DNA from: a bacterium
GTDB lineage: Bacteria; JAUVQV01; DATDCY01
Assembly: GCA_036524115.1 (NCBI GenBank)
Contig: DATDCY010000012.1
Location: 22,396 to 86,395, forward strand
Length of the DNA: 64,000 nucleotides
Reading direction: 5' to 3'
Below, piece by piece: positions 35,440-62,682 of the stretch; positions within the stretch are counted from its first letter, which is position 1; every line of letters begins with the position of its first letter. Under the pieces are notes generated by a model, which made no database searches, was not told the origin of the DNA, and worked only from the letters and a program-made list of their open reading frames with translations. A program made the translations under genes and the position numbers.

Positions 35440-35446
35440 GGTGGAC

Positions 35447-35695: not shown

Positions 35696-35700
35696 CCGGC

Positions 35701-36528: not shown

Positions 36529-36536
36529 CGCAGGAG

Positions 36537-37406: not shown

Positions 37407-37428
37407 ACGGCCGGGCCGCTGTGAAGAG

Positions 37429-41713: not shown

Positions 41714-41753
41714 CGCATTCCATGTGCCGAAGGGTATGCGCACGAGGAAGGTC

Positions 41754-44281: not shown

Positions 44282-44479
44282 TCGTCGAGGCCTTGGCGCG
44301 TCACATGGATGCCCGCAAGGAACTCCGCCTTGCCCGCCTAATTGCTCTTGGCCTTAAAGTCCTCACGCACGTCTGTGTCGAAGGCCCTCCTGTGTGTCAT
44401 CCTGTCGCAGGATGCTTCAATGTTCTGCCAAGTGTGCCCGCGAAAGAGTCGAGATGCATCGTGACGGACGTCTAAGCCG

Positions 44480-45676
44480 ATGAAGAGAATCTTGTATATC
44501 GAGGGCAACCGGGACGGGACTGTTGGCGGCTCGTACTACAGTCTCCTCTATCTCATCCAGGGTCTCGATAGATCAAAGTATGAGCCTCACGTGCTCTTCT
44601 TCGAGTCGAATCGTTTGATTCCTGAGTTCGCGAAGGTTGCTGTCAGCGTCAGGGTCGAGGACCTACGGGCGTCGAACAGCGATTGCTGCGGCTCGCTTGT
44701 CGACGTTTTGAGGTGGCCTTATGAGTTGCTCGTTGACGTGATCGCCCGGCAGCCGCGGATAGGCCGAATCATAAGAGAGGTTCGGCCCGATCTAGTTCAC
44801 CTCAACAACGGCTACTCCGGCATGCACGATTGGATGCTCGCCTGTCGTCTCAATGGCCTGAGGATCATCGCGCACGACCGCGGGACGAGTTGCCCGTGCA
44901 GCCTGCGGACGAGGATGCTTGTGAGGTTGCTGGACGCGGTCATCTGCGTCAGCGAGAGCTTCCGAGACAACGCGGTGCGCCAGGGATTGAGGGTGCCATT
45001 CTATCGCGTCTACAATGGACTGGATGTGCATGTGTCGTCGTTAAAGCACGCCGATACCAGTTCCGCAGAGGTGCGGCGGAGCCTCGGTGTCTCTGAAGGA
45101 CGGGTGGTCCTCGGGATGGTGGGGAACATACTCAGGTGGAAGGGCCAAGCAGTAGTGCTGCGGGCGCTTCGCACCATCGTGAGAAATCATCCTGATGTGG
45201 TCTGTGTGTTCGTTGGGGACGTACCGCGGGGCGAAGAGGAATACAAACGCGAACTCGAGGAATATGTTCTAGCCCATGGTCTTCAAGATCACGTTGTCTT
45301 TGCCGGCTACAGGAAGGACGTGGCCGATGTCCTCCAGACTGTAAGCGTGTTGGTTCACGCGTCTATCTCGCCAGAGCCTTTTGGGCGCGTGATTCTCGAG
45401 GGTATGGCGGCAGGCAAACCTGTTGTCGGGACGGATGCGGGCGGTGCCGCGGAAATCATAGTGAATGGGCAGACGGGTCTATTAGTGCCGATGGACGACG
45501 CGCCGGCGCTGGCCGAGGCATTGGACAGCTTGCTGCGCGACCCTGCTAGGGCTATTGAGATGGGGAGAAGGGGCAGGAGGCGAGTGATCGAGGATTTCAG
45601 TGCCGCGCGAATGGTCGGGGAAACGGAGCGGGTGTACGACAAGGTGTTTGCGTCCCGGCGCAACGTCCTTCTCTAG
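44480..45676 (+). CDS. Glycosyltransferase family 4 (GT-B, group 1)
   Basis: GGAAEIIVNGQTGLLVP...E(x7)E-type GT4 C-terminal domain. This is the first gene of the lower-GC block. Confidence 0.75.
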   Translation: MKRILYIEGNRDGTVGGSYYSLLYLIQGLDRSKYEPHVLFFESNRLIPEFAKVAVSVRVEDLRASNSDCCGSLVDVLRWPYELLVDVIARQPRIGRIIREVRPDLVHLNNGYSGMHDWMLACRLNGLRIIAHDRGTSCPCSLRTRMLVRLLDAVICVSESFRDNAVRQGLRVPFYRVYNGLDVHVSSLKHADTSSAEVRRSLGVSEGRVVLGMVGNILRWKGQAVVLRALRTIVRNHPDVVCVFVGDVPRGEEEYKRELEEYVLAHGLQDHVVFAGYRKDVADVLQTVSVLVHASISPEPFGRVILEGMAAGKPVVGTDAGGAAEIIVNGQTGLLVPMDDAPALAEALDSLLRDPARAIEMGRRGRRRVIEDFSAARMVGETERVYDKVFASRRNVLL

Positions 45677-45853
45677 CGAAGGACCAGCGTCATGTGTCCG
45701 AGTCGGGTACGAGGCGCGAATCGGCGACGCGTACGCATCTGCATGATGAGTCCAATCCCGATGCGCGTCGTTCTTGGGTCGGCGCGTTCTTGGTGTCGAC
45801 TAAGGGAGCGGCACGGTGTGAAGCGCGCGGGCACGGCGTTAGGAGGCTGGTGA

Positions 45854-46441
45854 ATGTTTAGGCGAATTGCGAGATGCGTTAGGACTTATCGGAAGAGGCG
45901 GCATATCGAACTTCTGCAGCGCCGAGGAATGAAGCTGGGCACAAATGTTCAGATTGAAGGCGACTGCTTCTTCGATCCTTCTCACTGCTTTCTCATCGAG
46001 ATCGAAGATCATTGTGCGTTGGCGCCAAACGTCAAGCTCATAGCGCACGATGGCAGTATGTATCGGTTTCTTGGCGCGACAAGAATTGGACGGATCCGGC
46101 TGCGTCGAAATTGTCTAATTGGTGACTCCACGATCATATTGCCCGGCGTGACCATCGGCGAGAATTCTATAGTGGGGTCCGGTTCCGTTGTGGTGAAAGA
46201 TGTGCCGCCCAATGTAGTGGCAGCGGGAAATCCTGCCAAGGTAATTTGCGGTCTTGAGGAATTCCTCGCCAAGCACCGGCGAAATCTGGAAAGCTCTAGA
46301 AGGTTCGGCGAAGAAGAATACGGCATTCGGTTCATTACAGACGAGAAGCGAAACGAGATGCTTAGATATCTGGCGGATAACCCCATCGCCTACATGGAGG
46401 GATTCACACCAGACATCTCCATGCTCAACAAGCGGACATGA
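45854..46441 (+). CDS. Hexapeptide-repeat (LbH) O-acetyltransferase, maltose/galactoside acetyltransferase-like
   Basis: [49 protein letters not shown] lies 9 nt upstream. Confidence 0.75.
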
Positions 46442-46447
46442 AGTCCT

Positions 46448-47584
46448 TTGAGTCTGAGGCAAGGTGACTTGAGTCTTCGCATCATTCAGGTAAGCCACGA
46501 CCTAAACATAGGGGGTCTGCAACGGGTAGTTGTCAATCTCGCCAAGGCCTTTCGAGAGCGCGGCTGCAACGTGTCAGTGCTTGTCCTACGTGAGCGTGGA
46601 CCTCTTGCTGAGGAACTGAACCGGAGCGGCGTGGATGTCCTCACGTTGCCTGGGGGCCGTAGGGTCGACTACCTGTCCTTAATGAAGATTTCTCGAATCA
46701 TCAAGGAACAGAAACCGCACGTCGTACATACGCACAATACACAACCGTTCATAGAGGGAGGCTTAGCGGCCCTGATATGTAGAGTCCCAGTGATAGTTCA
46801 CACGGACCACGCCCGATGTTATCCGGACAAACGTCGTTACATGCTAATGGAGCGTCTGTTATCAAGACATGTGAACCGAATCGTTGCGGTGTCTGACCAC
46901 ACGAGGGACGATCTCATCCGCTACTGCGGAATATCGGGGAAGAACATTCGAGTTATTCACAATGGCATTGACGGGACATGGAGCAGCGGACCAGTGGGGC
47001 GACTACAGAAGCTGAACGAGCTTGGGCTTCGTCCCACGGATGGGCCCCTCATCGGTCTTGGGGTGAGGCTTTGCTCCCAGAAGGGCGTAGGCTACCTGAT
47101 CAAGGCGATGCAGTTAGTTGTCAAAGAGTTCCCAAAGGCGACACTCCTGATTGCCGGCGATGGGGAACTCCGAAGTCAGTTGGACTGTGAGGCGAAACAA
47201 TTGGACCTGGATGAGAATGTTCACTTTGTGGGTCCCCGACTGGACATGCCGGAGATTCTGCGAATTCTGGACATCTATGTGCTGCCTTCACTCTGGGAGG
47301 GTCTCCCTCTGGTCCTTCTTGAGGCGATGGCGGCAGCGTTGCCGGTCGTTGCCACCGATGTGGGAGGGAATCGTGAGGTGGTTCGCGATGGACGCAACGG
47401 TTTCCTTGTCCAGCCCTGTGATTCGCCCGCCCTGGCCAAGGCTCTCCTGAACTTAATAGCGGATGCAGACATGAGGGCATCATTTGGCGAGCAGTCTCGT
47501 GAGATCTTTGAATCGGAATTTGCGCTACCACGTATGGTCGAAAATTACGAGAAGCTCTACCTGGAATGCCTCGGGCGTCGCTAG
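46448..47584 (+). CDS. Glycosyltransferase family 4
   Basis: LRIIQVSHDLNIGGLQRVV...GGNREVVRDGRNGFLV. The start is a TTG (46448 or 46469); no ATG is available. Confidence 0.75.
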   Translation: MSLRQGDLSLRIIQVSHDLNIGGLQRVVVNLAKAFRERGCNVSVLVLRERGPLAEELNRSGVDVLTLPGGRRVDYLSLMKISRIIKEQKPHVVHTHNTQPFIEGGLAALICRVPVIVHTDHARCYPDKRRYMLMERLLSRHVNRIVAVSDHTRDDLIRYCGISGKNIRVIHNGIDGTWSSGPVGRLQKLNELGLRPTDGPLIGLGVRLCSQKGVGYLIKAMQLVVKEFPKATLLIAGDGELRSQLDCEAKQLDLDENVHFVGPRLDMPEILRILDIYVLPSLWEGLPLVLLEAMAAALPVVATDVGGNREVVRDGRNGFLVQPCDSPALAKALLNLIADADMRASFGEQSREIFESEFALPRMVENYEKLYLECLGRR

Positions 47585-47599
47585 GCAGAAGGTATTCTC

Positions 47600-49084
47600 G
47601 TGTCGATGACTCATCGGGCCTTGAAGGAAGGAGCCTGGTATGGCGGTCTCCGCGTAGTCTCTCAAGCGTGCTCGTGGGCGGTGACGATCGCCATAGCACG
47701 TATTCTTCGCCCAACAGACTATGGGCTGGTCGCAATGGCGACCGTCCTTACGGGGTACATCGAAATCTTTAACGAGATGGGACTTGGTGCGGCGATTGTT
47801 CAGCGAAAGCAGGTGACTGAGGAGGAACTCTCAAGTGTGTTCTGGTTCACCCTGCTCACCGGGTTCCTTTTCGCCTTGGCGGCGTGGCTTCTCGCCTACC
47901 CAACCGCCAAGTTATTCGCCGAGCCAAGGCTGGTTGCAATTACACGAACATGCGCGCTGTTGTTTGTCATAAGTTCGATGACGTCTGTTCCTTATAGCCT
48001 TCTTCAACGTGAAGTGCGGTTTCGAGAGATTGGACTAATTGGGTTGATAGCGTCCCTAGTCCAGACCTCGGCGATGCTTGCGATGGCGATCATGGGCTTT
48101 GGGGTATGGACGCTCGTCGGCGGTCAGGTCATCCAGCGGACGATGACTTCGGTCCTGAGCTTCTGGAGATCATCCTGGTGGCCTAAGCTTCATTTTCGGC
48201 TTATCGAGACGCGACAGATGCTATACTTTGGACTGAATATTGCAGCGTCGCGGTCGGTCTTCTATCTCTTTCAGCGATCAGACCAGTTCATCATAGGTAA
48301 AGTCTTCAACGCAATGCTGCTCGGTCTCTATTCACTTGCGTTTCAGTTGGCAAGCATTCCCACGGACAAGGTGGTATCCATCGTGCAGCAAGTGTCCTTT
48401 CCGGTATTCTCGAGGATGCAAGGCAATCCGGATGAGTCGAGGCGACTCTACTTGAAGCTGAATTACTACATCGCGCTGGGAGTCACACCCGTCTACGCCG
48501 CGGGGCTACTATTTGCGGATCCGCTCATTCCAATCTTGCTGGGCGAGAAGTGGCGGTCCATCATCCCGCTTTTTCGGATGCTGTGCGTTATGAACTTCTT
48601 TTTGAATATCAGCGATCTTAACAACACTGTTCATACGGCGCAGGGGAGGCCACGGTGGCGGCTCTACTATATGCTAGTATCGGTAACGGTAATGCCGGCG
48701 CTCATCCTGGTGGCGGCACTCTATGGGTTCGAATTTGTAGGGATTCCATGGATCACGGTCTTTCCGTTGATCTGTGTTGGCTGGATACTGATTAGCTTGA
48801 GAAAACTGGAGATCAGGTATGGAGAGTATCTGCGAATCTTTGCGGTTCCATCGGGCGCGACGATGGCCATGGCCACAGGCGTCTTTGTTCTTAGGAAGCT
48901 GCCGGGATGGCCTGGTTCGCGTCCTTACGGCGGCGCCGCTGTGTTGGCGATTGAGATACTTTTCGCCGGTGCTATCTTTTTGGTTACCGTTGCCGTTACC
49001 GATAGGCGGGCATTCGACGGGATGATGGCCCTCGTCCGTCCTAAGCTGGAACGAACGCCACCGGAAGAGGCCGACGCGGGCTAG
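47600..49084 (+). CDS. Wzx-type polysaccharide flippase (MOP superfamily, 'polysaccharide biosynthesis protein')
   Basis: About 14 TM helices, with N-terminus GAWYGGLRVVSQACSWAVTIAIARIL and the central GLGAAIVQ motif typical of Wzx/RfbX. Confidence 0.75.
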   Translation: MSMTHRALKEGAWYGGLRVVSQACSWAVTIAIARILRPTDYGLVAMATVLTGYIEIFNEMGLGAAIVQRKQVTEEELSSVFWFTLLTGFLFALAAWLLAYPTAKLFAEPRLVAITRTCALLFVISSMTSVPYSLLQREVRFREIGLIGLIASLVQTSAMLAMAIMGFGVWTLVGGQVIQRTMTSVLSFWRSSWWPKLHFRLIETRQMLYFGLNIAASRSVFYLFQRSDQFIIGKVFNAMLLGLYSLAFQLASIPTDKVVSIVQQVSFPVFSRMQGNPDESRRLYLKLNYYIALGVTPVYAAGLLFADPLIPILLGEKWRSIIPLFRMLCVMNFFLNISDLNNTVHTAQGRPRWRLYYMLVSVTVMPALILVAALYGFEFVGIPWITVFPLICVGWILISLRKLEIRYGEYLRIFAVPSGATMAMATGVFVLRKLPGWPGSRPYGGAAVLAIEILFAGAIFLVTVAVTDRRAFDGMMALVRPKLERTPPEEADAG

Positions 49085-49140
49085 TGTAGTGTTCCACAAC
49101 ACTGGCAGGAAGCAAGGATATAGGAAGAGCGGAGCGCTTC

Positions 49141-50247
49141 TTGGCACAGACCGTTCGCGATGACTTGATAGATTTCTTGCGAGGTCTGGCCATCTGTGAC
49201 ATGGTGCTTGTACATTATGCGAGGTATGGCCCACGGTTACTCAACAAGGTGGTTGTCTATCACGATAGCGCTCTGGAAGGTTTTCTCCTTTGCTCGGGGT
49301 ATAGCGTTGGTGTCTATGTCAGGACGGTCTATCTCAAATCGTCAGGGACCGCAACGAGGACTCTTCTCACGCAGGCTCTACGGCTGGTAAGCGTTCAATA
49401 CCTTCTTATCGTGACTGCAAGTCTACCCAACTGGCTCGTTCGCGAGTCGTCCACTCAGGGATCCGAGATTGTGCGCTTTCTTGCCCGCTCCGTCCTTTTC
49501 CAGAATCAGATCGGGCTCATGCACATACTACCGCTCTTTGTGCCGCTCTTCCTTGCGAGCCCAATTCTGCTGGCGCTCGAAAAGAGATGGCATTTCGGGC
49601 CAATTCTCGTAATCTCCGCCCTGCTATTTGTATGGGGTTCTGAACGGCCGATCGTGTACGGCGACCCGGCGATCTTTCCCGTGCTGCTATGGCAAACTTA
49701 CTTTGTCATCGGCTTCGGCGTTGGTGTTTGGGCCACGAGAGTAGCGAAGACGATACCGTGGAGTTCGCACAAGACGCCGTTCCATGCGTTCGGAGTCCTG
49801 ATGTTGGCCCTAGCTATAAGGCATCTTCGGGTCGCGCCACACCTCGTTGAATGGAAGTCACTTAGCGCTAGTTTAGGAGAGTTCAGCAGATTTCCGCTGA
49901 ATGTGACAGGGTTGCTCTATGGATGCGCCGTCTGGTTCTTCGTGGCGGCGATCGCATCCTGGGCATGGAGTGTGATCTCGGAGTATTCAGCTACCAAGGC
50001 CGTTGCCCTTGCTGGCAGATATAGTCTTTTGGTGTTCTTTATTCACGTTCTGTTTCTGAAGTACCTGGAATTGTTTCGGTTACGTTTGGACGATGGGAAT
50101 TCCTACCTTGCCTATTCATGGTTCGCCGCTAATTGTCTGGCGACCTTGCTGCTCCTCTACTGGTATGAGTCGCGGGGGCGGAGCGTCGCGGGAGGGATCT
50201 TTGCCTGGCTATTCGGCAAGCCAAAAATGCCAAGAATGGCACCGTGA
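49141..50247 (+). CDS. Integral membrane protein, acyltransferase-3/OpgC-like (putative)
   Basis: N-terminal IDFLRGLAICDMVLVHY resembles the acyltransferase_3 R.D.LRG.A...VV..H signature. The protein is polytopic. The start is TTG 49141; no in-frame ATG precedes the motif. Confidence 0.4.
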   Translation: MAQTVRDDLIDFLRGLAICDMVLVHYARYGPRLLNKVVVYHDSALEGFLLCSGYSVGVYVRTVYLKSSGTATRTLLTQALRLVSVQYLLIVTASLPNWLVRESSTQGSEIVRFLARSVLFQNQIGLMHILPLFVPLFLASPILLALEKRWHFGPILVISALLFVWGSERPIVYGDPAIFPVLLWQTYFVIGFGVGVWATRVAKTIPWSSHKTPFHAFGVLMLALAIRHLRVAPHLVEWKSLSASLGEFSRFPLNVTGLLYGCAVWFFVAAIASWAWSVISEYSATKAVALAGRYSLLVFFIHVLFLKYLELFRLRLDDGNSYLAYSWFAANCLATLLLLYWYESRGRSVAGGIFAWLFGKPKMPRMAP

Positions 50248-50434
50248 TCCATTGTCATCGGCAGGTTCGTCATATCGCTCACGTGTGCCTGGTGGCGAGG
50301 CCGAACCCGAGTCGGCGGAAGCGACTCGCCTCGCGCCAATAGGAGCGATGCCTTGGAGCGACTTGACGACTGCGATAGCCCGACCCCGGTGTGGTCTTGT
50401 CGGCCCGTCGCGGGGCCAATCTTGAGATAGATCC

Positions 50435-51679
50435 ATGGAAAAGGCCGTGCTTCTGTTGTGGCTGTTGCACCTATTCGATTTTCAGTGGCTAGTATGCCAC
50501 TGGATTCCGGGACTTTCCATACTGAAGTCAATCCCTACGATCTTCACCTTTCTGTTGCTAGCTTACATGTTCCTCAGTAGGGGCGTCAGCGTCGGAAGCA
50601 AGACCGTCCTCGCTTTCTTGGCTGTCATCTTAATGAGTTCATTCTTTGCGGAGAACACGGGACGTGCACGCGTGCTAATTCGACAGATGGCAGTAGTGTA
50701 CTCCCTTCTGATACTCGTGCTCACATACATTCAAAGCGAAACGAACATCAGGACATTCTTCCGTATCTATCATGCATACATCGCATATATGGCCTGCTGG
50801 GGTCTCTTCGCGGGGGGCAAAGTTCCCTGGCACTACCTGCTCAATGAGGAGGACTCGTTCGGCCCACTGATGTGCATCGGCGCATCCATATGCTTCAGTT
50901 CTGCCAGGGCGGCCCGGCCAGGCAATGAAAGAAGATTCCTTCAGTCATCTGCCCTTTTGTCGGTCGCCGGGGTTGTTGCATCGTTTGCCCGCGGGGCTTT
51001 TGTGTCGTTGGTACTGACGATGACGCTGTGGGTGCGAGGAGCGAGAAAGAAGTGGGCCGCATTGTCGTCCTTGGCGATCGCGGTCGCGACCATTCTACTT
51101 GCGGCAAGGCTCATATTCCCCAACAATGAATACTGGGAGGAGATGAAGACGATCAGTCATGGGACGTCTCAGGGGACTGGCCATGACAGAAAGGTGCTCT
51201 GGGGCGTTGCGTGGTTGGAGTTCATCGATCACCCGCTCTTGGGAGTGGGACCCTATAACTTCGGAGTCAGGGCGCCCGAGTACATTGTTCGTCTGGAGGA
51301 TGCCGGTCATTACACCGATCCGGGTCGCATTTGGGGGCGAGCCTTGCACAATGGATACTTTCAAGTTCTTTCGGAGTTGGGTGTCTTCGGGGTGATCGCA
51401 TTCTTGGGAATCCTTGTGGACTTCCTTCGATCAAACACTAAAGGGAGGGTTTGTGTCGCAACAACCGCCACGGACGGCGAAGAAGGCCACAGAATCGCCG
51501 GCTTCGAGGCGGTGTCGCTGCTTCGCGGCGCGCTTTTCGGCATGATCGCGCTTCTCTTGAACTTAGTCTTCTTTGACATTCTATATTATGGGTGGTTGTT
51601 TGACATCTATTTGCTGAACGCCGTGGTCACCAGACATTTGGGTGTTGACTCTTCGGCGGCAGATTCGGTTCCAGGATGA
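50435..51679 (+). CDS. O-antigen ligase / Wzy-like polymerase family (Wzy_C domain), exosortase-locus type
   Basis: Polytopic, with FARGAFVSLVLTMTLWV and a large periplasmic loop (...GVGPYNFGVRAPEY...). Confidence 0.6.
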   Translation: MEKAVLLLWLLHLFDFQWLVCHWIPGLSILKSIPTIFTFLLLAYMFLSRGVSVGSKTVLAFLAVILMSSFFAENTGRARVLIRQMAVVYSLLILVLTYIQSETNIRTFFRIYHAYIAYMACWGLFAGGKVPWHYLLNEEDSFGPLMCIGASICFSSARAARPGNERRFLQSSALLSVAGVVASFARGAFVSLVLTMTLWVRGARKKWAALSSLAIAVATILLAARLIFPNNEYWEEMKTISHGTSQGTGHDRKVLWGVAWLEFIDHPLLGVGPYNFGVRAPEYIVRLEDAGHYTDPGRIWGRALHNGYFQVLSELGVFGVIAFLGILVDFLRSNTKGRVCVATTATDGEEGHRIAGFEAVSLLRGALFGMIALLLNLVFFDILYYGWLFDIYLLNAVVTRHLGVDSSAADSVPG

Positions 51680-51802
51680 GCCTCGTTCAATCGCCACCAC
51701 GCATGCCTGACTGGTTCATCGTCCCTCACCGATGGACAAAGTGCTGGACTACGGTGTGCACCGGTTTCTGGGTACATCCGACTATGGCACCGGTGTGTTG
51801 AT

Positions 51803-52894
51803 GTGAACGACTCAAACACGGCTTCGCGGCTGCCAGCCTTTCGTGCTAACAGTCTTGATCTATTGCGGTTGCTGGCGGCGGGTCAGGTCGCGTTCATGCA
51901 CTCCACTGAATTGTTGGATCCACGGTTTGCTGATAGCCACCTGTGTAGACTGGTGAACTTATGGCCTGGCGTACCCGTCTTCTTCTTCATAAGCGGATTG
52001 TTAATCAGCAAGTCTTACGAGAGCGCGCAGAATGTTCGCCAATACGCGGTTAACCGTATTCTCAGAATATATCCCGCGCTGTTGATCTGTGTGTTGATCA
52101 ACCTAGTGATGGTAGGCTTTACAGGGTACTTTTCGCGACAGAGCGTTTCTTGGACTGCGCTGATGGTATTGGCGGCCGCGAAGACAACCGTCGTGCAATT
52201 CTACAATCCAGACTATATGCGAGGATTCGGCGACGGAGTACTTAACGGCAGCCTGTGGACGATAACCGTCGAACTGCAGTTCTACGCATTTGTGCCGATC
52301 TTCTATGAATGTGTCAAGAGAACGCGACTCCGCTTTGGCATTGCCAGTGCGATTGTGATATCAGCATCAGTGGTGGCGAATATTCTGCTGTATTGGCTGC
52401 GCTCGGGCTACTCGGACACCCTTCTATGGAAACTGGCGAGGGTCAGTTGTGCTCCTTGGGTGTACATGTTTGTCGTGGGGATGATGGGACAGAGGTACTT
52501 CTCCCGCATCATGCCAGTTCTGATGCGAATAAACATCTGGGCGCTAATCACGACTTACTTTGCTGTGGCATACCTTGCACGCGCTGGCGGTGTGTCCTTG
52601 GACAACAGTGTTCCACCATACATGTTCGCAGTGTTGTGTGTGACGGTTCTACGTGCAGCCTATTCCTTTGAAGGATTCACCCGCATGCTCTTGAGGGGGT
52701 ATGACCTTTCCTACGGACTGTACCTATGGCATATGCCCCTGGTCAACCAGTTCTTGTACCAGCAGGTCTTGGGGGGGGCGTCTGTTATCCTGTCATTATC
52801 GATATCGGTTCTGATTGCGATGCTTTCGTGGAGATTGCTCGAGAAGCCCATCCTTGGGCTAAAACGATATTCGATTCGGGCAAGTCATGCGTGA
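51803..52894 (+). CDS. Acyltransferase family 3 (membrane O-acyltransferase)
   Basis: LDLLRLLAAGQVAFMHS... polytopic, with S.SYGLYLWHMPL near the C-terminus. Confidence 0.65.
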   Translation: MNDSNTASRLPAFRANSLDLLRLLAAGQVAFMHSTELLDPRFADSHLCRLVNLWPGVPVFFFISGLLISKSYESAQNVRQYAVNRILRIYPALLICVLINLVMVGFTGYFSRQSVSWTALMVLAAAKTTVVQFYNPDYMRGFGDGVLNGSLWTITVELQFYAFVPIFYECVKRTRLRFGIASAIVISASVVANILLYWLRSGYSDTLLWKLARVSCAPWVYMFVVGMMGQRYFSRIMPVLMRINIWALITTYFAVAYLARAGGVSLDNSVPPYMFAVLCVTVLRAAYSFEGFTRMLLRGYDLSYGLYLWHMPLVNQFLYQQVLGGASVILSLSISVLIAMLSWRLLEKPILGLKRYSIRASHA

Positions 52895-52934
52895 TCAGGA
52901 TGGGGGTGTTTGCCGGACGGCGGGAGACGCTTCG

Positions 52935-53984
52935 GTGACCTTGGCCAAGACAAGAGCATCTCGGTGGATCTGGATTACCTGGGAAAGGCAGCGCCGGTCG
53001 GTTGAGATGGCAAGAGCCTTGGGCTGCAAGTTGTACGTCTTCGACTACAGCGGCAGCTTTCGGTATGTGAGATGCATCTTTTCCACCTTGTTTGCATGCT
53101 TGAGGGACAGGCCGAAGATTCTGTTCGTGCAGAATCCGTCGATGGTATTGGCGGTATTTGCCGCATGCATGAGACCGCTGGGCCGATTTGCGCTTGTGGT
53201 TGATCGGCACAGTTCCTTCCGGGTCGGCAAGCAATATGTCTGTGCCCGAGATCGAAACAGGGTTCTGCGAAGACTGGTCGAGGCATGCAATTCCTACTCG
53301 ATCCGAAGGGCTGATATTACGATCGTTACAAATGCATTTCTTGCGGATGTTGTGAAGCGCTATGGTGGAGTTCCTTTCATACTGCCTGACAAATTGCCGG
53401 ACATAGAGTGTGCGAATCCGTTTCAAGTTGCGGTTAGAGAAGGGGCCAGAGTCCTTCTAGTGTCGTCGTTTGGACGCGATGAACCCGTAGAGGAAGCCGT
53501 CGAGGCGATGAGGATGTTGCTGAACGAAGATGTCGTCATGCATGTTTCTGGCAATTGTCGGAAGCTGAGGGATTCGGTGCTGCGCGGAGCTCCTTCGAAT
53601 GTAGTCTTCACCGGCTTCATGGCAGAGGACGAATATCTCGCGACATTGTGCGCATCTGATGCCGTGATAGCGCTCACTACGTCGGACCACACGATGCTCT
53701 GTGGATGCTATGAAGCAGTGGCTGCCGGAAAGCCCCTCATTACGTCCGACAAGAAGGTGCTAGTAGACTATTTTTCAGGCGCGAGATTTGTATCTAATGA
53801 GGCGGACTCGATCCGAGAGGCGATCGTCGATGTCTTGTTCTTGAACAGGGAGAAGTATCTGGCGGAAACGAGGAAGATGCAGATAGCCCTCGCGAAGTCG
53901 TGGGGGGAACGATTCATAGGGCTGTGTCAAGTGCTGGAAGGATTACGCAGGAGCGACGAAGAGTTAGGGGATTGTGGCAACTGA
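52935..53984 (+). CDS. Glycosyltransferase (GT-B, GT4-like)
   Basis: C-terminal CYEAVAAGKPLITSD... The track start ATG 52887 overlaps the previous gene by 8 nt and has no RBS. GTG 52935 has GGGAGA upstream. The start is uncertain. Confidence 0.55.
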   Translation: MTLAKTRASRWIWITWERQRRSVEMARALGCKLYVFDYSGSFRYVRCIFSTLFACLRDRPKILFVQNPSMVLAVFAACMRPLGRFALVVDRHSSFRVGKQYVCARDRNRVLRRLVEACNSYSIRRADITIVTNAFLADVVKRYGGVPFILPDKLPDIECANPFQVAVREGARVLLVSSFGRDEPVEEAVEAMRMLLNEDVVMHVSGNCRKLRDSVLRGAPSNVVFTGFMAEDEYLATLCASDAVIALTTSDHTMLCGCYEAVAAGKPLITSDKKVLVDYFSGARFVSNEADSIREAIVDVLFLNREKYLAETRKMQIALAKSWGERFIGLCQVLEGLRRSDEELGDCGN

Positions 53985-53992
53985 TAGAGGGG

Positions 53993-55435
53993 GTGGGCGG
54001 CCTGCTCTACGAGCTATATTCACGATTTCCTGTCTGCATGCAAAACTTGGCAGTTTCGATGTACGGATATCGGGAATGTGTCGTTCGACATGGGAAATTC
54101 TTCGAATCTGCCCGGGGCCAGATCGCCGGCAGGATGTACGTTTCCGGTCGGGCTCTGCAAGAATACCAATCCCAAGCGCTTAGGAACCTTGTGATGAGGT
54201 GCAACGAAAAAGTCCCATATTACAGAAAGATCTTTCGGAAGATCGGACTCGAGCCTAGGCAGATTCGTGGCGTCGAGGATCTGCTGAGGCTCCCTATCCT
54301 TGAGAAATCTGAATTACGGGACAATCAGAGCACCTTGGTCGCTGATGATATTCGGAAGGCGGACTTAATCGTATTGGGGACGAGCGGAACGACAGGTACG
54401 CCGCTGAGGATTTGGTGCAATACGCGAACACGAAGGCTAAACTATGCCTATTATGATAGATTTCTAAGGCAAGCGGGCATAGATTATTCGGCGCCCAGGG
54501 CGACCTTTGGAGGAAGGCTGATTGTTCCGAGCGGGCAGCGGAAGCCCCCGTTCTGGCGGTATAGCGTCTTCCAAAAGAACCTTCTCTTTTCTTCATATCA
54601 CTTGAGCGATGATAATATTGGATATTATATCGACAAACTCATCCGCTATCGGCCAAGCTACATTGATGCTTATCCGTCAAGCTTGCACCAGATTGCCGCA
54701 TACGCGAGCAGACATGGGCTGGACCTGCGAGGGTGCACGGGAGGCATTACAACTTCCGCGGAGACACTGCTTGACGATCAGCGACGGATGATTGAAGACG
54801 TGTTTGGCGTGCAAGTGTATGATCAATACGGATCAGCGGAGATGTGCGCATTTATCGGCCAATGTAGAATGGGGAACTATCACATACATGGAGACTACGG
54901 GATAGTAGAGATTTTGCGGTCAGACGGCTCGCCGGCCAAACCTGGCGAGGAAGGCGAACTGGTATGCACCGGACTCATCAACGAAGTAATGCCTCTGCTT
55001 CGGTATCGAATTGGAGATATCGGAGTGTTATCGGACAGAACATGCTGCTGCGGCTCTCAGTTTCCGCTCTTGGATAGAATTCTGGGCCGCATGGACGACC
55101 TAATCACAACCCCCGAGGGCCATCGGGTCGGGAGGCTGAGCCCAGTCGCAAAGGGTCTCCCGGTGAGGGAAGTCCAGTATGTCCAGAGCAATGTCCATGG
55201 CGTAGTCGTGCTCGTGGTCCCAGATGCTGGATATTGCGAGGCTGCGGAGGCTACGCTTGTAGCCGAGCTGCAGAAGAGGTTGGGAAGATCTATGAAGATT
55301 GACGTTCAGCAGGTGGATGTTATACCGCGCTCAAAGAGCGGGAAGTTTAGGTCAACCGTTTCATCCGTTTGGAATGCTGGCCCCGAGGAGCGACGAGGTC
55401 AGCTCTCCCGACCAGGCGGTCATATCTGCCATTGA
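53993..55435 (+). CDS. Adenylate-forming enzyme, phenylacetate-CoA ligase / coenzyme F390 synthetase (CapK-like) family
   Basis: LVLGTSGTTGTPLRIWC (P-loop), SAE..., VPYYRKIF...EDLLRLPILEKSELR, and the C-terminal ACT-like region typical of PaaK/CapK. Start is GTG 53993 (GAGGGG upstream) or ATG 54038. The track start 53900 overlaps the GT gene. Confidence 0.65.
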   Translation: MGGLLYELYSRFPVCMQNLAVSMYGYRECVVRHGKFFESARGQIAGRMYVSGRALQEYQSQALRNLVMRCNEKVPYYRKIFRKIGLEPRQIRGVEDLLRLPILEKSELRDNQSTLVADDIRKADLIVLGTSGTTGTPLRIWCNTRTRRLNYAYYDRFLRQAGIDYSAPRATFGGRLIVPSGQRKPPFWRYSVFQKNLLFSSYHLSDDNIGYYIDKLIRYRPSYIDAYPSSLHQIAAYASRHGLDLRGCTGGITTSAETLLDDQRRMIEDVFGVQVYDQYGSAEMCAFIGQCRMGNYHIHGDYGIVEILRSDGSPAKPGEEGELVCTGLINEVMPLLRYRIGDIGVLSDRTCCCGSQFPLLDRILGRMDDLITTPEGHRVGRLSPVAKGLPVREVQYVQSNVHGVVVLVVPDAGYCEAAEATLVAELQKRLGRSMKIDVQQVDVIPRSKSGKFRSTVSSVWNAGPEERRGQLSRPGGHICH

Positions 55436-55556
55436 GAAGGAGATGGATGAGAAATGAGGATTGGGCCACGTTATGCGATTCAACCAGCCGGTTATTAATC
55501 GGAGCCATCCTCCGTTGTCGAGTCTCAAAGGCAGGGCACCGTGTTCATCGATCTTC

Positions 55557-55570
55557 GTGATGCGCATCAC
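55557..55570. promoter_or_regulatory. Perfect 14-bp palindrome GTGATGCGCATCAC upstream of the beta-helix gene (candidate operator)
   Basis: Exactly self-complementary. It lies about 105 bp upstream of ATG 55675 in a 240-bp intergenic region. Confidence 0.3.
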
Positions 55571-55674
55571 GGTGACTTCGCGACATTGGAGATAATGTCC
55601 GGACATGGATTGGCTGCTTTGCCGCGCGCAGAGGACGCGGACGGACGAATGGATCGGGTAAGCGAGGTGGTGGC

Positions 55675-57321
55675 ATGCCGAGATTGACGCTGAGTGCCTT
55701 GATGGCTGGCTTGGTGCTTCTGACGGTGAGCCCCGGACTATCCAGAGCTGCAAATATGTACGTTGACCCGACAATCGCTCAGAACATTACCACTGGCACG
55801 TATTCTGTCATCAATAGGAATTCGACCGGATCGAACGGGAACGCTTATAGGACGATCAAGGAAGCTATTGCCGCGATGAACGGAGGAGACGACATATATA
55901 TAAGGGGCGGGACATACAGGGAAGGCTATATTGAAATTCCTACTTCAAAGAACGGCACCGCGGGAGACTGGTCGTCCATTCAGTCATACCCCGGTGAATG
56001 GGCCATCCTTGACGGTGAAAGAGCTGCGCAGTATGGAGTCGTACTTGGAAACTACGGATACGGCGATTCGGCGCAACTGAAGTATTGGCGACTAGAAAGG
56101 CTGGAGTTGACCGGCGGGGGCACAAGATCTGGGAACGCCACGAGCACCTGTGCGGGGTTCTGGGGTAATGGAGGTCCTTTCCATATTCGGCAGTGCTATA
56201 TTCACGATAATCTTTCGTACACGTATATCAACAACCCGTCCGGTTTAACAGGCGCCGAATGGAAGGACTCGGTCGTTGAGTATTGTTTCTTTAGGAACAA
56301 TGGCTCTGATGGGCTACTGTCCGGTAATTGCGCGCATATCGCCATATATAGCGACTATTTGCACGACACGAATGCACAATATGGGTACGATGGCGTAAGA
56401 GGGACAAGGAATAACGCATTTCGGTACAACTACTTTGAAGACGGATATGTGGGCATAAAGCACAAGAGCGGGCAACTGCTCAGCGGCAGGAATGCGGGAG
56501 CCGGACATGGTTGGAATGATAATTATGTAGGTCAAGGTGACAAGATTCATCACAACATCTTTCGAAATCTAGGCAAGACTGCGATGTACATTTCGCAAGA
56601 TTTTGCACAGATATATAACAATATAGTTGACACGAGAGGGCTCCCCATCACCGTCCAATATGAACCGAGCCGATATGTGCTCTACAAGGTAGGCACCTAT
56701 AATAATACGATTCTTAATCCGGCTGGTGCAGCAATCACCCGCTATGGCAAGCAGTACTGGGCATTTGAAGAAGCTCAATACTATGGGTTCGACTTCAACA
56801 ATTTGATCGTCGGCGGGAATTCTAGCGCACCTTACGGGCAAGAAAGAATCATTAATGTCGTGCCGGATAGCAGTGGCGTGGTGCAATTTGGCTTCTCCAA
56901 CTATTCCGACAGCCATAACTACTTCTATCGGCCGATTTCGGCATATCTCTTCCGTTACTTTCGGACCGATTTTGATGCCGTCGGTGCTGGGGCGCAGACG
57001 CTTACACGTGCGCCGCGAGTAGTCTATACGAACACGGGCGGAGGCGGGCTCAATATTGCATACGAGAACGGATACTTTACCGACGGGGATCATGTATTGG
57101 GGACAGGGGTCACACTTAAGACCGGAGGGATTGGGGGCGTGCATCCGTATCTGCCGGATGTCAGGCTGCCCGGCTACGTTGGCGCGATTGATCCATCGGA
57201 CAGTCGATGGGTGAGACAGGTGCTTGATCTCAGCCAAGTCCAAAACTTGATGAATCCTGGTTACCTAGGAATCGGGGCGCCTTCGAACTTAAGGATTCAA
57301 GTCGGGAATCCTATTCCATGA
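55675..57321 (+). CDS. Secreted right-handed parallel beta-helix (pectate-lyase-fold) protein; candidate polysaccharide lyase/hydrolase or C5-epimerase
   Basis: Signal MPRLTLSALMAGLVLLTVSPGLSRA. NGGDDIYIRGGTYRE and repeated N-/G-rich beta-helix rungs (NNxxxxN.G...). Confidence 0.6.
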   Translation: MPRLTLSALMAGLVLLTVSPGLSRAANMYVDPTIAQNITTGTYSVINRNSTGSNGNAYRTIKEAIAAMNGGDDIYIRGGTYREGYIEIPTSKNGTAGDWSSIQSYPGEWAILDGERAAQYGVVLGNYGYGDSAQLKYWRLERLELTGGGTRSGNATSTCAGFWGNGGPFHIRQCYIHDNLSYTYINNPSGLTGAEWKDSVVEYCFFRNNGSDGLLSGNCAHIAIYSDYLHDTNAQYGYDGVRGTRNNAFRYNYFEDGYVGIKHKSGQLLSGRNAGAGHGWNDNYVGQGDKIHHNIFRNLGKTAMYISQDFAQIYNNIVDTRGLPITVQYEPSRYVLYKVGTYNNTILNPAGAAITRYGKQYWAFEEAQYYGFDFNNLIVGGNSSAPYGQERIINVVPDSSGVVQFGFSNYSDSHNYFYRPISAYLFRYFRTDFDAVGAGAQTLTRAPRVVYTNTGGGGLNIAYENGYFTDGDHVLGTGVTLKTGGIGGVHPYLPDVRLPGYVGAIDPSDSRWVRQVLDLSQVQNLMNPGYLGIGAPSNLRIQVGNPIP

Positions 57322-57460
57322 TTGGGGTTATCCCTAAGTAGCTTGTCGTTCGAACCTACCTCAAAGTCTGATTTCACGCCTAGGTCAGTTTTCAGCTCAT
57401 TAGGTGTGAGCTTCCACACCTTCCACGAGCGTTTGCCGACAGTAAAGGAAGGATGGCAAA

Positions 57461-58129
57461 GTGAGACTGCTGAAGAAAGTTGCATCGTGTCTTCCCCCAG
57501 CTTTACAGGCCGAGCTCAAGCGCATTCATTATGGGCGCCAAATCCGCAGGGCGAGCTTTCGCACATCCGAACCCGAATTTGAGATTCTCCCAAGACTTGT
57601 GAGGCCGGGAGATTGGGTCATCGATATTGGCGCTAACGTAGGGCACTATACCATGAGATTGTCCGAGTTGGTGGGCAGCCACGGTAGAGTTATTGCTTTG
57701 GAGCCGGTGCCGGCAACCTTCGCTCTACTTGCCGCGAACGTCCAACTCTTCCCATTCGCAAATGTTACGCTCATGAACGTTGCCGCATCGAACAGTCTCG
57801 GTGTGATTGGGATGAGCATTCCACGCCACTCGAGCGGATTGACGAACTACTACCAAGCGTACCTGTCATCCGAGGGGAAGACCGCTGTTTCTGTGCTCAT
57901 GATGCCGCTTGATTCCCTTCGTATTGCGAAGCGGGTCGGGCTTGTCAAGATTGACGCCGAAGGTCATGAGCTGTTCGTCCTCCGAGGGATGGATGATCTG
58001 CTGCGTGAGCATCACCCTACACTCATAGTCGAGACCGATTCCCGGGAGGTGGTCGACACTCTGGTGTCACTTGGCTATCGAGCGGAGAGGCTCGCGGATT
58101 CGCCTAATCTTCTATTTGTGGCCAACTGA
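57461..58129 (+). CDS. FkbM-family SAM-dependent methyltransferase
   Basis: VIDIGANVGHYT...VIALEPVPATFALLAANV...KIDAEGHELFVLRG. AGGAAGGA lies 9 nt upstream of GTG 57461. Confidence 0.75.
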   Translation: MRLLKKVASCLPPALQAELKRIHYGRQIRRASFRTSEPEFEILPRLVRPGDWVIDIGANVGHYTMRLSELVGSHGRVIALEPVPATFALLAANVQLFPFANVTLMNVAASNSLGVIGMSIPRHSSGLTNYYQAYLSSEGKTAVSVLMMPLDSLRIAKRVGLVKIDAEGHELFVLRGMDDLLREHHPTLIVETDSREVVDTLVSLGYRAERLADSPNLLFVAN

Positions 58130-58221
58130 CGCCGCCTGGCGCTCGACTGTGTCTGAATGGCGGGAGTGCCCCGCTGTCCGAAGAGTTGGTCTTGATTTCG
58201 TTGACAACCAGTAGGACCTTC

Positions 58222-59262
58222 ATGGGGGGGACGAATTCCAGGCTGCGCTCTGGCGTCTCAGATTCAGCCAACCTAGACATCTTGCGAAGCTTTGCGGTGA
58301 TGTCGGTGCTCTCGGATCACGTCTTGGAAGCAGCGGGCATAAAGACAGGCATGTGTTTCCATCCGCTCGACTGGTACCTGGGTCGCATGGGCGTCCTTAT
58401 GTTCTTCGTACATACCAGCCTGGTTCTCATGCATTCACTCGAGCGCCTTTCGGTAAGCAAACGGCGACTACTCGCGAGATTCTACGTAAGGAGAGTATTC
58501 CGGATCTATCCCCTCAGTATGGTGACCGTCCTTGGGGTTGTCGCGTTATCCCTGCCGCCGATGCCATGGGCCACGTTCCAGTGGCATGGATATGGCAATC
58601 TTGCATCGAATCTCATGCTAACTATGAACTTCACTCGAAGCACCCCGGTGCTCAATCCCCTTTGGAGCCTTCCGCTTGAGGTGCAGATGTACGTGGTTCT
58701 GCCTCTTGTGTTTCTCTGTCTTCGTGGCACTCGACCCGTACTCGCCGCATGTACTCTGTGGCTACTCGCCGTTGGTGTCGCAACGGTTCAGAGCGGGATC
58801 AGCGATCGCCTGAGCGTTGCGCAATTTGCCCCTTGCTTCATGGCTGGCGTAATTGCGTATACCGTGGGGCGAACGAATAATCTTCGACTAGTTGGCAGGC
58901 TTTGGCCTCTTGCCATCGTTGCACTGATCGGATTCTATCTGTTCTTCGAGGAGGTGGACTCCCAGATACATTCTCCGATGCTGGGATGGTTCTTCTGCTT
59001 GGCGCTCGGAAGTGCCATCCCTTTCTTCAAGGATCTACCTGGCGGACTCTTCGCTAAGGTTGGGCGCATCGTCGCAAGATATTCATATGGTATCTACCTT
59101 CTTCATATAGTCGCTTTGTGGGGGGGGCTGTTCGCCCTTCAGCATTCACCGTTGCTGCTCCAGGTTATCGTGAGTACTGTCCTGCTCGTAGCGTTGCCGG
59201 TGGCTAGCTATCATCTCGTGGAAGCGCCTCTCATTCGAGTTGGACGGAAGCTTTCGGATTGA
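58222..59262 (+). CDS. Acyltransferase family 3 (membrane O-acyltransferase)
   Basis: LDILRSFAVMSVLSDHVLE... polytopic. ATG 58222 is preferred over the track's TTG 58186. Confidence 0.65.
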   Translation: MGGTNSRLRSGVSDSANLDILRSFAVMSVLSDHVLEAAGIKTGMCFHPLDWYLGRMGVLMFFVHTSLVLMHSLERLSVSKRRLLARFYVRRVFRIYPLSMVTVLGVVALSLPPMPWATFQWHGYGNLASNLMLTMNFTRSTPVLNPLWSLPLEVQMYVVLPLVFLCLRGTRPVLAACTLWLLAVGVATVQSGISDRLSVAQFAPCFMAGVIAYTVGRTNNLRLVGRLWPLAIVALIGFYLFFEEVDSQIHSPMLGWFFCLALGSAIPFFKDLPGGLFAKVGRIVARYSYGIYLLHIVALWGGLFALQHSPLLLQVIVSTVLLVALPVASYHLVEAPLIRVGRKLSD

Positions 59263-59297
59263 CGGCATGAAGCAGTCACTTGGGTAGACGCCGTGGG

Positions 59298-60473
59298 ATG
59301 ACGGGACGACATTTGTCCCCAACGGCACCTCCACTCGGGATGGCGGATCTCTGGGGCGGGGTCTGCGGCCTGCTCAGGGGAAAAGAGACGGCACGTGTGG
59401 TCGAGGCGGAATTTGGGGCGGCTCTAGATTCGACGCACGCGTTCTTGACTTCGTCGGGCAAGGCGGCCCTGATCACTGCCCTGCGAGCGCTGTCACGAAT
59501 CGCGCCGGAACGCCGCCAGGTCGTCGTCCCCGCCTACACATGTTTCTCCCTCCCCGCGGCAGTCGCCAGAGCGGGGATGATCGCCGTGCCGGTCGACGTC
59601 GATCCCTCAACGCTGGACCTGGACCAAGAGGCTCTCAGGCGCGCAGTCAGCCCTGCGACGCTCTGCGTCATCCAAGTCCATCTCTTCGGGAGACCGGCGG
59701 ACACTGCGGCGATAGGGGAGGTGTGCAGGGAACAGGAAGTCTTCCACATCGAGGACGCTGCGCAGGCGCTCGGCACTACGCATGATGGGAAGATGCTCGG
59801 GACGAGGGGCGACATCGGGATCTTCAGTTTCGGGCGAGGGAAGACGGTCACGTGCGGTGCCGGGGGGGCGGTGGTTACGCAGTCGGGGCGCGTCGGCGCG
59901 CTCCTTCGCGACGAGGTTGTACATCTCAGAGCCCCGGCATGGCACCACGAGACCGCAGCGCTTGTCTCCGTCGGCCTGATGGCGCTCTTCATCCGGCCGG
60001 CGCTCTACTGGTTTCCAGCAAGCCTGCCGTTCCTCGGGCTGGGTGAGACGGTATACGACACCGAGTTTCCAATCGCCAGGCTCTCGGGAATGCGTGCCGG
60101 TCTTCTGGGGCGCTGGCGGCGGAACCTCGAGCGGGGGAACGCTGCGCGGCAGGAGAACGTGGCGTGGTACTCCCAGCGGGTTCGCTGCGCCGTAGCCAGC
60201 GGCGACGACGCACCGCTGCTGCGATTTCCCGTGCTCCTCGCGACCGCGGGGCAGAAGGATCGTGCCCTGGATGCGTCTCGGAGGATGGGGCTGGGAATCA
60301 GCGGGATGTACCCCGCGGCGATTGACGAATTGTCGCAGGTGCGGGCCGCGCTGGGCCGGCGTGTCGAATGCGCGCAGGCGCGGGATATTGCACGTCGACT
60401 CGTGACGCTGCCGACGCATCAGCATGTCCGGCCGAAGGACCGCGAGCGCATCGTGGGGGCGCTGTGCTCCTGA
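59298..60473 (+). CDS. DegT/DnrJ/EryC1/StrS-family PLP-dependent sugar aminotransferase
   Basis: AFLTSSGKAALITALRAL...DAAQALG...GDIGIFSFGRGKTVTCGAGGAVV are the DegT motifs, including the PLP-Lys region FSFxxxK. GC content returns to high here. Start is ATG 59298 or 59340. Confidence 0.75.
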   Translation: MTGRHLSPTAPPLGMADLWGGVCGLLRGKETARVVEAEFGAALDSTHAFLTSSGKAALITALRALSRIAPERRQVVVPAYTCFSLPAAVARAGMIAVPVDVDPSTLDLDQEALRRAVSPATLCVIQVHLFGRPADTAAIGEVCREQEVFHIEDAAQALGTTHDGKMLGTRGDIGIFSFGRGKTVTCGAGGAVVTQSGRVGALLRDEVVHLRAPAWHHETAALVSVGLMALFIRPALYWFPASLPFLGLGETVYDTEFPIARLSGMRAGLLGRWRRNLERGNAARQENVAWYSQRVRCAVASGDDAPLLRFPVLLATAGQKDRALDASRRMGLGISGMYPAAIDELSQVRAALGRRVECAQARDIARRLVTLPTHQHVRPKDRERIVGALCS

Positions 60474-61612: not shown

Positions 61613-61632
61613 GATCGGCGCAAGGTAGGCGT

Positions 61633-62679: not shown

Positions 62680-62682
62680 ACA

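Follow-up and report, generated by a model that had tools for sequence, protein, structure and literature searches.

Surface-glycan cassettes of low GC (guanine plus cytosine) content that were imported from elsewhere are textbook features of bacterial genomes, and variable cassettes of this kind are the rule in bacteria. In Wzx/Wzy clusters for O-antigen, capsule or exopolysaccharide, such as the enterobacterial rfb and colanic acid clusters, Wzx, a Wzy_C protein, several glycosyltransferases of family 4 (GT4) and decorating enzymes form one co-oriented block between conserved genes; its GC content is clearly under that of the host, and related loci combine a common core with differing accessory genes. 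Wzx/Wzy modules are also known from exopolysaccharide (EPS) loci of the XrtA/PEP-CTERM type, namely for the zooglan of Zoogloea and in a cluster of the Sphingomonadales (PMC1569441; bioRxiv 10.64898/2025.12.21.693542). Here we describe a block of this kind at positions 44282-59279 of a 64,000-nucleotide stretch of bacterial DNA (the window; GenBank assembly GCA_036524115.1, contig DATDCY010000012.1, positions 22,396 to 86,395), between the exosortase gene xrtW and a DegT aminotransferase gene. This block is probably a horizontally acquired Wzx/Wzy-type cassette of an exosortase-linked family, which came from a donor of lower GC and entered the xrtW-DegT interval of an already mosaic locus. Judged by the GC3 (GC at third codon positions) of the cassette, a donor GC of roughly 50-55% is the likeliest.

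The locus resembles the enterobacterial clusters in all the features listed above. Unlike them, it lies inside an exosortase/PEP-CTERM locus of an uncultured high-GC host, and an initiating transferase, Wzz/Wzc and Wza were not found nearby; compared with serotype clusters, it is known from one cassette and not from alternative alleles within one species, so that 'strain-variable' and 'serotype-type', the words of the annotation, are conjectural here. With the XrtA/PEP-CTERM loci it shares PrsT, PrsR, a PEP-CTERM protein, a deacetylase of the XrtA system, FemAB, an acyl-CoA ligase, a decarboxylase, hydrolases, an exosortase with EpsI and the Wzx/Wzy module itself. It departs from them in its exosortase, which scores as XrtW and carries EpsI as a fused domain, and in that a search of the window did not turn up initiation and export genes of the EpsB/D/E/F/G type. 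A third likeness is to loci for matrix polysaccharides in which the enzyme that degrades the product is encoded too (RbmB for the Vibrio polysaccharide, VPS, of V. cholerae, AlgL for alginate, PslG for Psl), as the biosynthetic cluster includes a gene for a secreted lyase-like beta-helix protein and RbmB is among the fold matches of this protein. The difference is that a lyase role is suggested here by a fold with about 12% sequence identity to solved lyases and with template modelling (TM) scores of 0.3-0.46.

A first-pass annotation of the window had noted a change in base composition over this block of about 15 kb, and the change was borne out by GC counts in 1-kb windows and in 60-nt lines, by the GC of synonymous third positions (GC3s) and by change-point analysis. 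The GC content of 44282-59279 was 0.54; the left flank reached 0.65, the right flank 0.63 and the first 25 kb of the window 0.71. In 1-kb windows, values of 0.49-0.60 were found across the cassette (44001-59000), of 0.62-0.68 between 26001 and 44000, with a single window of 0.59 at 25001-26000, and of 0.60-0.66 between 59001 and 64000, while positions 1-25000 gave 0.64-0.77, all but a few windows (0.64-0.67) lying at 0.68-0.77. The 60-nt lines of the cassette had a median GC of 0.53 (5-95% range, 0.43-0.65), and lines with a GC of 0.55 or less made up 60% of the cassette, 7% of the left flank, 14% of the right flank and 1% of the first 25 kb. The flanks had been put at 65-72% GC; for the right flank the figure is 0.60-0.66 instead, and both flanks lie under the rest of the window.

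Maximum-likelihood change points were located at 44339, within the 198-bp spacer 3' of xrtW (44282-44479), and at 59289, at the start of the DegT gene and 27 bp past the stop codon of the last cassette gene, which places the annotated borders of the block within about 60 bp. A secondary GC step was detected at 45851, 3' of the first GT4 gene (GT4a).

The difference was also evident in codon use. The GC3s of the 12 cassette genes was 0.599, against 0.856 in the scaffold genes to the left, 0.740 in those to the right and 0.926 in the first 25 kb. Gene by gene, GC3 was 0.56-0.65 in 11 cassette genes and 0.70 in the first GT4 gene, and it ranged over 0.66-0.97 in the flanking genes of the locus and 0.89-0.97 in the first 25 kb; the cassette and scaffold values scarcely overlapped (Mann-Whitney, p = 3e-6). 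The synonymous codon fractions of the cassette differed on average by 0.22 from those of the first 25 kb and by 0.16 from those of the left flank, and the codons CTA, TTA, AGA, CGA, GGT and GCT, near-absent from the genes of the first 25 kb, were common in it, and CTA, TTA, AGA and CGA in it alone. GC and codon usage, for which a quantitative check had been proposed in the annotation, were thus far from uniform, and the block has the atypical composition, atypical codon use and sharp borders of a genomic island. The amino-acid composition of membrane proteins was ruled out as the cause of the GC shift, because the shift was largest at synonymous sites and equally large in the soluble proteins (GT4, CapK-like, beta-helix and FkbM).

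Taken as a whole, the window falls into three compositional layers: the first 25 kb with PrsT/PrsR, at a GC3s of 0.93; the exosortase scaffold, at 0.86 to the left of the cassette and 0.74 to the right; and the cassette itself, at 0.60. Change points lie at about 25186, 44339, 45851 and 59289. Arrival of the whole locus together with the cassette was ruled out, since DNA that arrived jointly cannot give three composition classes split by sharp steps.

The second line of evidence was a comparison with other XrtW loci, 28 of which were retrieved by scanning one genome per species with an alignment of seven XrtW sequences; a scan of genome contigs with the single XrtW protein as query had found no relative. 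In eight of these loci (L008, L010, L013, L014, L015, L016, L017 and L020), the DegT gene starts 1.1-4.0 kb after xrtW, compared with 15.0 kb here, and the interval contains in most of them GNAT and/or FemAB genes only. Their hosts include a Dehalococcoidales metagenome-assembled genome (MAG; L008), Manganitrophaceae (L013 and L014), Nitrospirota (L015), Rokubacteria (L016, with a uniform GC of 0.66-0.71) and a 'Deltaproteobacteria' MAG (L017). In none of L002-L020 did a homologue of the present Wzx or Wzy protein come up within 10 kb of xrtW. The comparison of syntenic loci that the annotation had called for could thus be run on eight distant XrtW loci, all of which lack a Wzx/Wzy block between xrtW and DegT, so that absence from the same site accompanies the atypical composition.

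The right-hand side of the locus is in part retained in these bacteria, with homologues of the GT2 (GT2b), polysaccharide deacetylase (PDA2) and/or GT4 (GT4d) genes 3' of DegT in L013, L014, L016, L017 and L020. FemAB and GNAT genes, which lie between xrtW and DegT elsewhere, are upstream of xrtW here, and further rearrangement must therefore have taken place as well. The host of the window is probably a member of the Methylomirabilota (Rokubacteria), and the best pointer to it is a Rokubacteria MAG (L019) whose PrsR matches that of the window at 90% identity in protein and 86% in DNA. The adjoining EPS genes of L019 are only 60-69% identical in protein; this contrast and the change point near 25186 indicate that the scaffold is a separate compositional layer, and the exosortase scaffold looks to have been exchanged too. 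The representative of the 90% cluster of PrsR (P0073) is labelled as Candidatus Methanoperedens, an archaeon, which most likely reflects a binning error in that MAG.

The gene content of the block was assigned by profile matches to Pfam and NCBIfam, with bit scores read against the family cutoffs. Eleven of the twelve assignments made in the annotation were backed in this way, and the twelfth, the beta-helix protein, by a structure model. All twelve genes are on the + strand. The first, GT4a (44480-45676; Glycos_transf_1, 139 bits), is of intermediate composition and has as its best NCBIfam match TIGR03088, a glycosyltransferase family of the PEP-CTERM/XrtA system, under the cutoff. It is followed by a hexapeptide (left-handed beta-helix, LbH) sugar O-acetyltransferase (45854-46441; Hexapep, 43 bits), by a second glycosyltransferase, GT4b (46448-47584; Glycos_transf_1, 147.5 bits; TIGR03088, 231.5 bits, short of the cutoff of 409), and by a Wzx-type MOP flippase (47600-49084; Polysacc_synt_3, 271 bits; Polysacc_synt, 140 bits; NF007773, 245 bits, short of the cutoff of 273).

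The middle of the cassette encodes an OpgC-like membrane acyltransferase of the acyltransferase-3 superfamily (49141-50247; OpgC_C, 74 bits; Acyl_transf_3, 34 bits), a membrane protein of the Wzy_C superfamily (50435-51679; Wzy_C, 63.6 bits), which would be a repeat-unit polymerase or a glycan ligase, and an acyltransferase-3 membrane O-acyltransferase (51803-52894; Acyl_transf_3, 95 bits). The next gene (52887-53984, or from 52935 in the Logan gene call) encodes a divergent GT4-like glycosyltransferase with matches barely over the cutoffs (Glyco_trans_1_4, 33 bits; Glycos_transf_1, 32 bits). A CapK/PaaK/F390-synthetase-like adenylate-forming enzyme (53924-55435, in an open reading frame (ORF) starting at about 53900) was recognised by the precomputed Pfam family CapK_C, its PaaK-like NCBIfam matches being all under cutoff. 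The last two genes encode an FkbM-family methyltransferase (57461-58129; Methyltransf_21, 66 bits; TIGR01444, 94.7 bits with a cutoff of 37.7) and a third acyltransferase-3 membrane protein (58186-59262; Acyl_transf_3, 76 bits).

Between the CapK-like and FkbM genes lies the gene for a right-handed beta-helix protein of 548 residues (55675-57321), the N-terminus of which reads by eye as a signal peptide. The precomputed Pfam annotation was Pel9A-like_beta_helix, while the Pfam profile search gave no match, and a PDB sequence search with its family profile was also empty. An AlphaFold model built with 30 homologues gave a right-handed beta-helix with a predicted local distance difference test (pLDDT) score of 88, whose fold matches were lyases of families PL6 and PL9, rhamnogalacturonan lyase, chondroitinase B, GH136 and RbmB; TM scores were 0.3-0.46 for the whole set and 0.38-0.46 for PL6, PL9, rhamnogalacturonan lyase, GH136 and RbmB. 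On this model, the protein is probably a glycan-cleaving or glycan-modifying enzyme, a putative lyase or hydrolase.

Relatives of the cassette were found in other exosortase loci and metagenomic contigs. The closest Wzy homologues are 43% (L030/L031) and 40% (L033) identical, and the closest beta-helix homologues 46-48%. In L030/L031 (GC 0.36) the order is PMT_2, exosortase, EpsI, LbH (50%), GNAT, GT4b (46%), PIG-L, GNAT, Wzx (41%) and Wzy (43%). In L033 (GC 0.43) it is exosortase, EpsI, two GT4 genes, hexapeptide, Wzx, hexapeptide, GT4, GT4b (47%), Wzy (40%) and OpgC (37%), followed by a deacetylase, a Pel9A-like beta-helix, GT2 and FkbM. In L036 (GC 0.43) Acetyltransf_6, LbH (55%), GNAT, an unassigned protein, GT4b (48%), Wzx (37%), GT4a (45%), Wzy (27%) and the beta-helix protein (47%) follow one another. 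The cassette thus lies directly 3' of an exosortase/EpsI pair in two loci, L030/L031 and L033. Single genes recur more widely: homologues of LbH were found at 50-55% identity in L030, L036 and L017, and of GT4b at 46-48% in L030, L033, L036 and L017, those of L017 (GC 0.56; LbH 52%, GT4b 47%) being placed 3' of its DegT block. In L038 (GC 0.36), a beta-helix homologue stands near a CapK-like homologue that is 51% identical to that of the window.

The OpgC-like homologue adjoins Wzy in L033, as does a gene with the Pfam OpgC_C domain in L041, which repeats the order Wzy, OpgC, beta-helix and GT2. In these two unrelated metagenomic contigs (L033, 9734-16746; L041, 10001-16851) the order can be written as Wzy, OpgC-like acyltransferase, (deacetylase), Pel9A-like beta-helix, GT2, (FkbM), and the Wzy-OpgC-beta-helix-GT2 order suggests a conserved functional sub-module. 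The organisms that carry the sampled homologous cassettes all have a lower GC (0.36-0.56). In NCBIfam, GT4a, GT4b and the Wzy_C protein come closest to PEP-CTERM/XrtA-system families, each time under cutoff. By its gene content and order, the cassette of the window is a member of a recurrent family with a common core and variable accessory genes.

The annotation had presented the block as a foreign Wzx/Wzy cassette dropped into a conserved exosortase scaffold. Composition, codon use and the eight XrtW loci argue for its foreign origin, while the second half of the description needs revision, as the flanks do not look native either. Moreover, the cassette is not a generic insert, because its closest relatives are collinear cassettes, two of which directly follow an exosortase/EpsI pair. 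A comparable GC step was also seen in an unrelated exosortase locus of a Gammaproteobacteria MAG (L021, 1-11527), where at least 10 kb at a GC of 0.54, with genes for GT4, two sulfotransferases, GH71, GT4 and Wzx, lie directly upstream of an exosortase-EpsI gene, after which the GC rises to 0.66-0.69.

Several observations weigh against the import, or limit what can be said of it. No tRNA gene was found in a tRNA search, direct and inverted repeats flanking the block were limited to short matches at chance level, no integrase or transposase is encoded among the twelve cassette genes, and neither half of the cassette matched any of 72,556 plasmids. Neither an initiating phosphoglycosyltransferase of the WbaP or WecA type nor a Wzz, Poly_export or tyrosine-kinase match, as expected for a Wzc/Wzz chain-length regulator and a Wza exporter, was found among the ORFs scanned from window position 1 to window-equivalent position 68479. 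In E. coli, wecA lies away from its glycan cluster, and the initiating transferase may likewise be encoded elsewhere. The XrtW loci used for comparison are all distant, with no close relatives among them (the next-best XrtW is 55% identical), and the closest cassette homologues, at 37-55% identity, are too distant to name the donor. The flanks are themselves atypical, with GC3s of 0.86 and 0.74 versus 0.93, so that the term 'conserved native scaffold' oversimplifies an exosortase locus that is layered. Finally, in low-GC organisms too, the GC of the homologous cassettes lies a few points under that of their neighbours, and part of the deficit may therefore be intrinsic to such cassettes.

This last point leads to the alternative of a native cassette of long residence that drifted to lower GC, through escape from GC-biased gene conversion for want of a homologous partner and perhaps through weak expression. 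The low GC of O-antigen and capsule loci is a general and long-known pattern, and in the related cassettes GC falls from 0.44-0.39 to 0.30-0.38 in L030, is 0.38-0.45 versus 0.46-0.52 in L033, 0.34-0.47 in the cassette genes and 0.44-0.48 beyond them in L036, and 0.54 versus 0.66-0.69 in L021. Nevertheless, the first 25 kb exceed the cassette in GC3s by a very wide margin (0.33), the switch on the right takes place over no more than tens of bases, between genes that are 17 bp apart, and a native block of such age would be expected in some of the eight XrtW loci that lack it, so that we regard drift in place as unlikely. Less probable still is an artefact of assembly or binning, in which a 15-kb contig of lower GC had been misjoined between two high-GC contigs. 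The window does come from a third-party MAG, where it lies on a contig of 90,866 bp, and an independent Logan assembly of run DRR101456, used for comparison, breaks near both borders, at 44188 and at 59203-59225. Three of its contigs match the window, at 32298-40920 (L034, two mismatches), 44188-59225 (L001) and 59203-68479 (L039), the latter two without mismatch over 44188-59225 and 59203-64000. L001 begins with 94 bp of the 72%-GC tail of xrtW joined to the cassette, and in L039 DegT is preceded by the final 60 bp of the acyltransferase gene (52% GC), with which the contig begins. The two GC switches are thus each contained, 76-94 bp from the end, in one independent contig, which makes a chimeric join at the switches very unlikely. 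In addition, the alignment of the EpsI domain crosses position 44188, the genes are co-oriented and tightly spaced, and related cassettes follow exosortase genes elsewhere. The Logan breaks lie 60-94 bp from the GC switches, with an overlap of 23 bp at the right-hand one, and 40920-44188 is fragmented; unbroken pieces cover the cassette (15 kb) and the outer parts (8.6 and 9.3 kb). The breaks near the borders could stem from co-existing strains that branch the assembly graph, or from coverage.

A different question is what the cassette makes. In place of a polymer, its product could be an oligosaccharide for protein glycosylation, with the Wzy_C protein as an O-oligosaccharyltransferase (PglL- or TIGR03097-like) that attaches the oligosaccharide, once flipped, to XrtW-processed PEP-CTERM proteins, and with the cassette setting the glycan type. 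Glycosylation of PEP-CTERM proteins was proposed earlier (PMC1569441; bioRxiv 10.64898/2025.12.21.693542). In NCBIfam the Wzy_C protein matches only TIGR03097, a putative exosortase-A-associated O-glycosylation ligase, the sole solved relative retrieved in a PDB search with the Wzy family is the WaaL-type ligase/polymerase 7TPG (E = 2e-6), the Wzy_C gene belongs to a cassette directly after the exosortase here, in L030 and in L033, and neither a chain-length regulator nor an exporter turned up in the ORFs scanned. Set against this, the TIGR03097 score is 52 bits with a cutoff of 188, and the Wzy_C domain gives no distinction between polymerases and ligases. Only one Wzy_C gene is present, a secreted lyase-like enzyme suits a polymer better, and the export genes may lie elsewhere in the genome. 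On balance, we consider a protein-glycosylation role improbable. It can be extended, with equally small likelihood, to the proposal that the exosortase-adjacent LbH-GT4-Wzx-Wzy-OpgC-beta-helix cassettes of several lineages are dedicated, exchangeable 'glycan-type' modules, in which the TIGR03097-related Wzy_C protein ligates the oligosaccharide to PEP-CTERM proteins released by XrtW, and that the Logan breaks at the borders reflect co-existing strains with different modules. If that were true, the cassette would set a strain-specific glyco-coat on sorted proteins, beyond exopolysaccharide alone.

Under the favoured explanation, an acquired Wzx/Wzy-type cassette, the composition, gene families, gene order and contrast with other XrtW loci are the observations from which we infer an order of steps, with its substrates and chemistry. 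The glycan would be carried by undecaprenyl phosphate, primed by an initiating phosphoglycosyltransferase encoded elsewhere. The repeat unit would be built by the three GT4 enzymes of the cassette, probably together with the GT2 and GT4 enzymes that are present in the flanks, and could be decorated in the cytoplasm by the hexapeptide acetyltransferase, the FkbM methyltransferase and the CapK-like adenylating enzyme, the last possibly by activating a carboxylate. Wzx would flip the unit to the periplasmic face, where the three acyltransferase-3/OpgC-like membrane proteins may O-acylate it and the Wzy_C protein would polymerise it, and the secreted beta-helix enzyme may trim or remodel the polymer outside the cell. 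As far as the family names indicate, the repeat unit may thus be O-acylated, methylated and aminoacylated, as the annotation had predicted.

The exosortase directly upstream of the cassette (42773-44281, + strand) had been taken for XrtA. This is not the case, as the protein matches the XrtW model NF038142 with 479.5 bits (cutoff 425) and remains under the cutoff of the XrtA model TIGR03109 (193 versus 208 bits). It carries a fused C-terminal EpsI domain (TIGR02914, 75 bits), and the NCBI name of the 502-residue protein is 'exosortase W'. A literature search found no paper on XrtW. The accessory genes do belong to XrtA-system families, and with these and PrsT/PrsR present the locus reads as an otherwise typical PEP-CTERM system of the XrtA type. 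PrsT, a lipoprotein with tetratricopeptide repeats, and PrsR, a sigma-54 response regulator associated with the PEP-CTERM box, are encoded at 21489-25253 (+ strand; TIGR02917, 387.5 bits, cutoff 312; TIGR02915, 617 bits, cutoff 502.6); with a GC3 of 0.90-0.95 they look native, and they bound the exosortase locus on its left side.

Next to them, a PepA-like PEP-CTERM protein, the presumed substrate of the exosortase, is encoded at 25434-25979 (+ strand; TIGR02595, 27.3 bits, cutoff 16, at residues 156-180). A sigma-54-type -24/-12 site with one mismatch, TGGCACAACTCATGCA, lies outside the cassette at 25396-25411, 23 nt 5' of this gene and beside the gene for the sigma-54 activator PrsR. A single such site per window is the chance expectation, and its placement is suggestive. 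Scans of 43800-60000 for sigma-70 promoters and terminators gave no excess over shuffled sequence. The genes from 27798 to 63807 are all on the + strand and tightly packed, which makes co-transcription of the cassette with its flanks plausible.

The left scaffold (27798-42776, + strand; GC3s 0.856) encodes, in this order, a deacetylase, an AsnB-like amidotransferase, a PrmC-like methyltransferase, an acyl-CoA ligase, a WbuX-like protein, FemAB, an acyl-carrier protein, two hydrolases, a second ligase, a decarboxylase, a GNAT protein (Acetyltransf_6) and a GT2. Matches above cutoff were obtained for TIGR03006 (378 bits, cutoff 276), TIGR03019 (398, cutoff 260), TIGR03100 (198, cutoff 168) and TIGR03098 (631, cutoff 592), and TIGR03099 was narrowly under it (472 versus 478). 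The two paralogous genes for exosortase-system acyl-CoA ligase-like proteins (31761-33380 and 37366-39054), the acyl-carrier protein (35447-35695), the two hydrolases and the decarboxylase make up a little-understood XrtA-associated acyl or aminoacyl module, which could feed glycan substituents.

On the other side, the right scaffold (59280-63807, + strand; GC3s 0.74), assigned with Pfam, consists of the DegT aminotransferase, GT2b, PDA2 and GT4d genes and contains the change point at 59289. Beyond the window, the contig L039 (4602-9276, window-equivalent about 63800-68479) encodes a 279-residue protein without assigned family, two Hydrolase_4 proteins and, at about 66.5 kb, a PrsK-like histidine kinase with GAF and HATPase domains. 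The exosortase locus is therefore bracketed by PrsT/PrsR on the left and by this PrsK-like kinase on the right. Just outside the locus, on the minus strand at 13321-21507, is a run of genes of native-looking GC3 for large proteins that are predicted to be secreted or at the surface and that have fn3/PKD, CglD-like, choice-of-anchor D and PPC domains.

An imported glycan cassette of low GC is biologically expected and is not a new kind of system. What the locus adds is an independently assembled example of an imported glycan module in an exosortase locus from a poorly known high-GC lineage, and it draws attention to XrtW as an unstudied class of exosortases. The common core of LbH, GT4, Wzx, Wzy, OpgC-like acyltransferase and lyase-like beta-helix protein recurs beside exosortase genes in distant bacteria, and this gene set offers a handle on the coupling of exosortase sorting to glycan synthesis.

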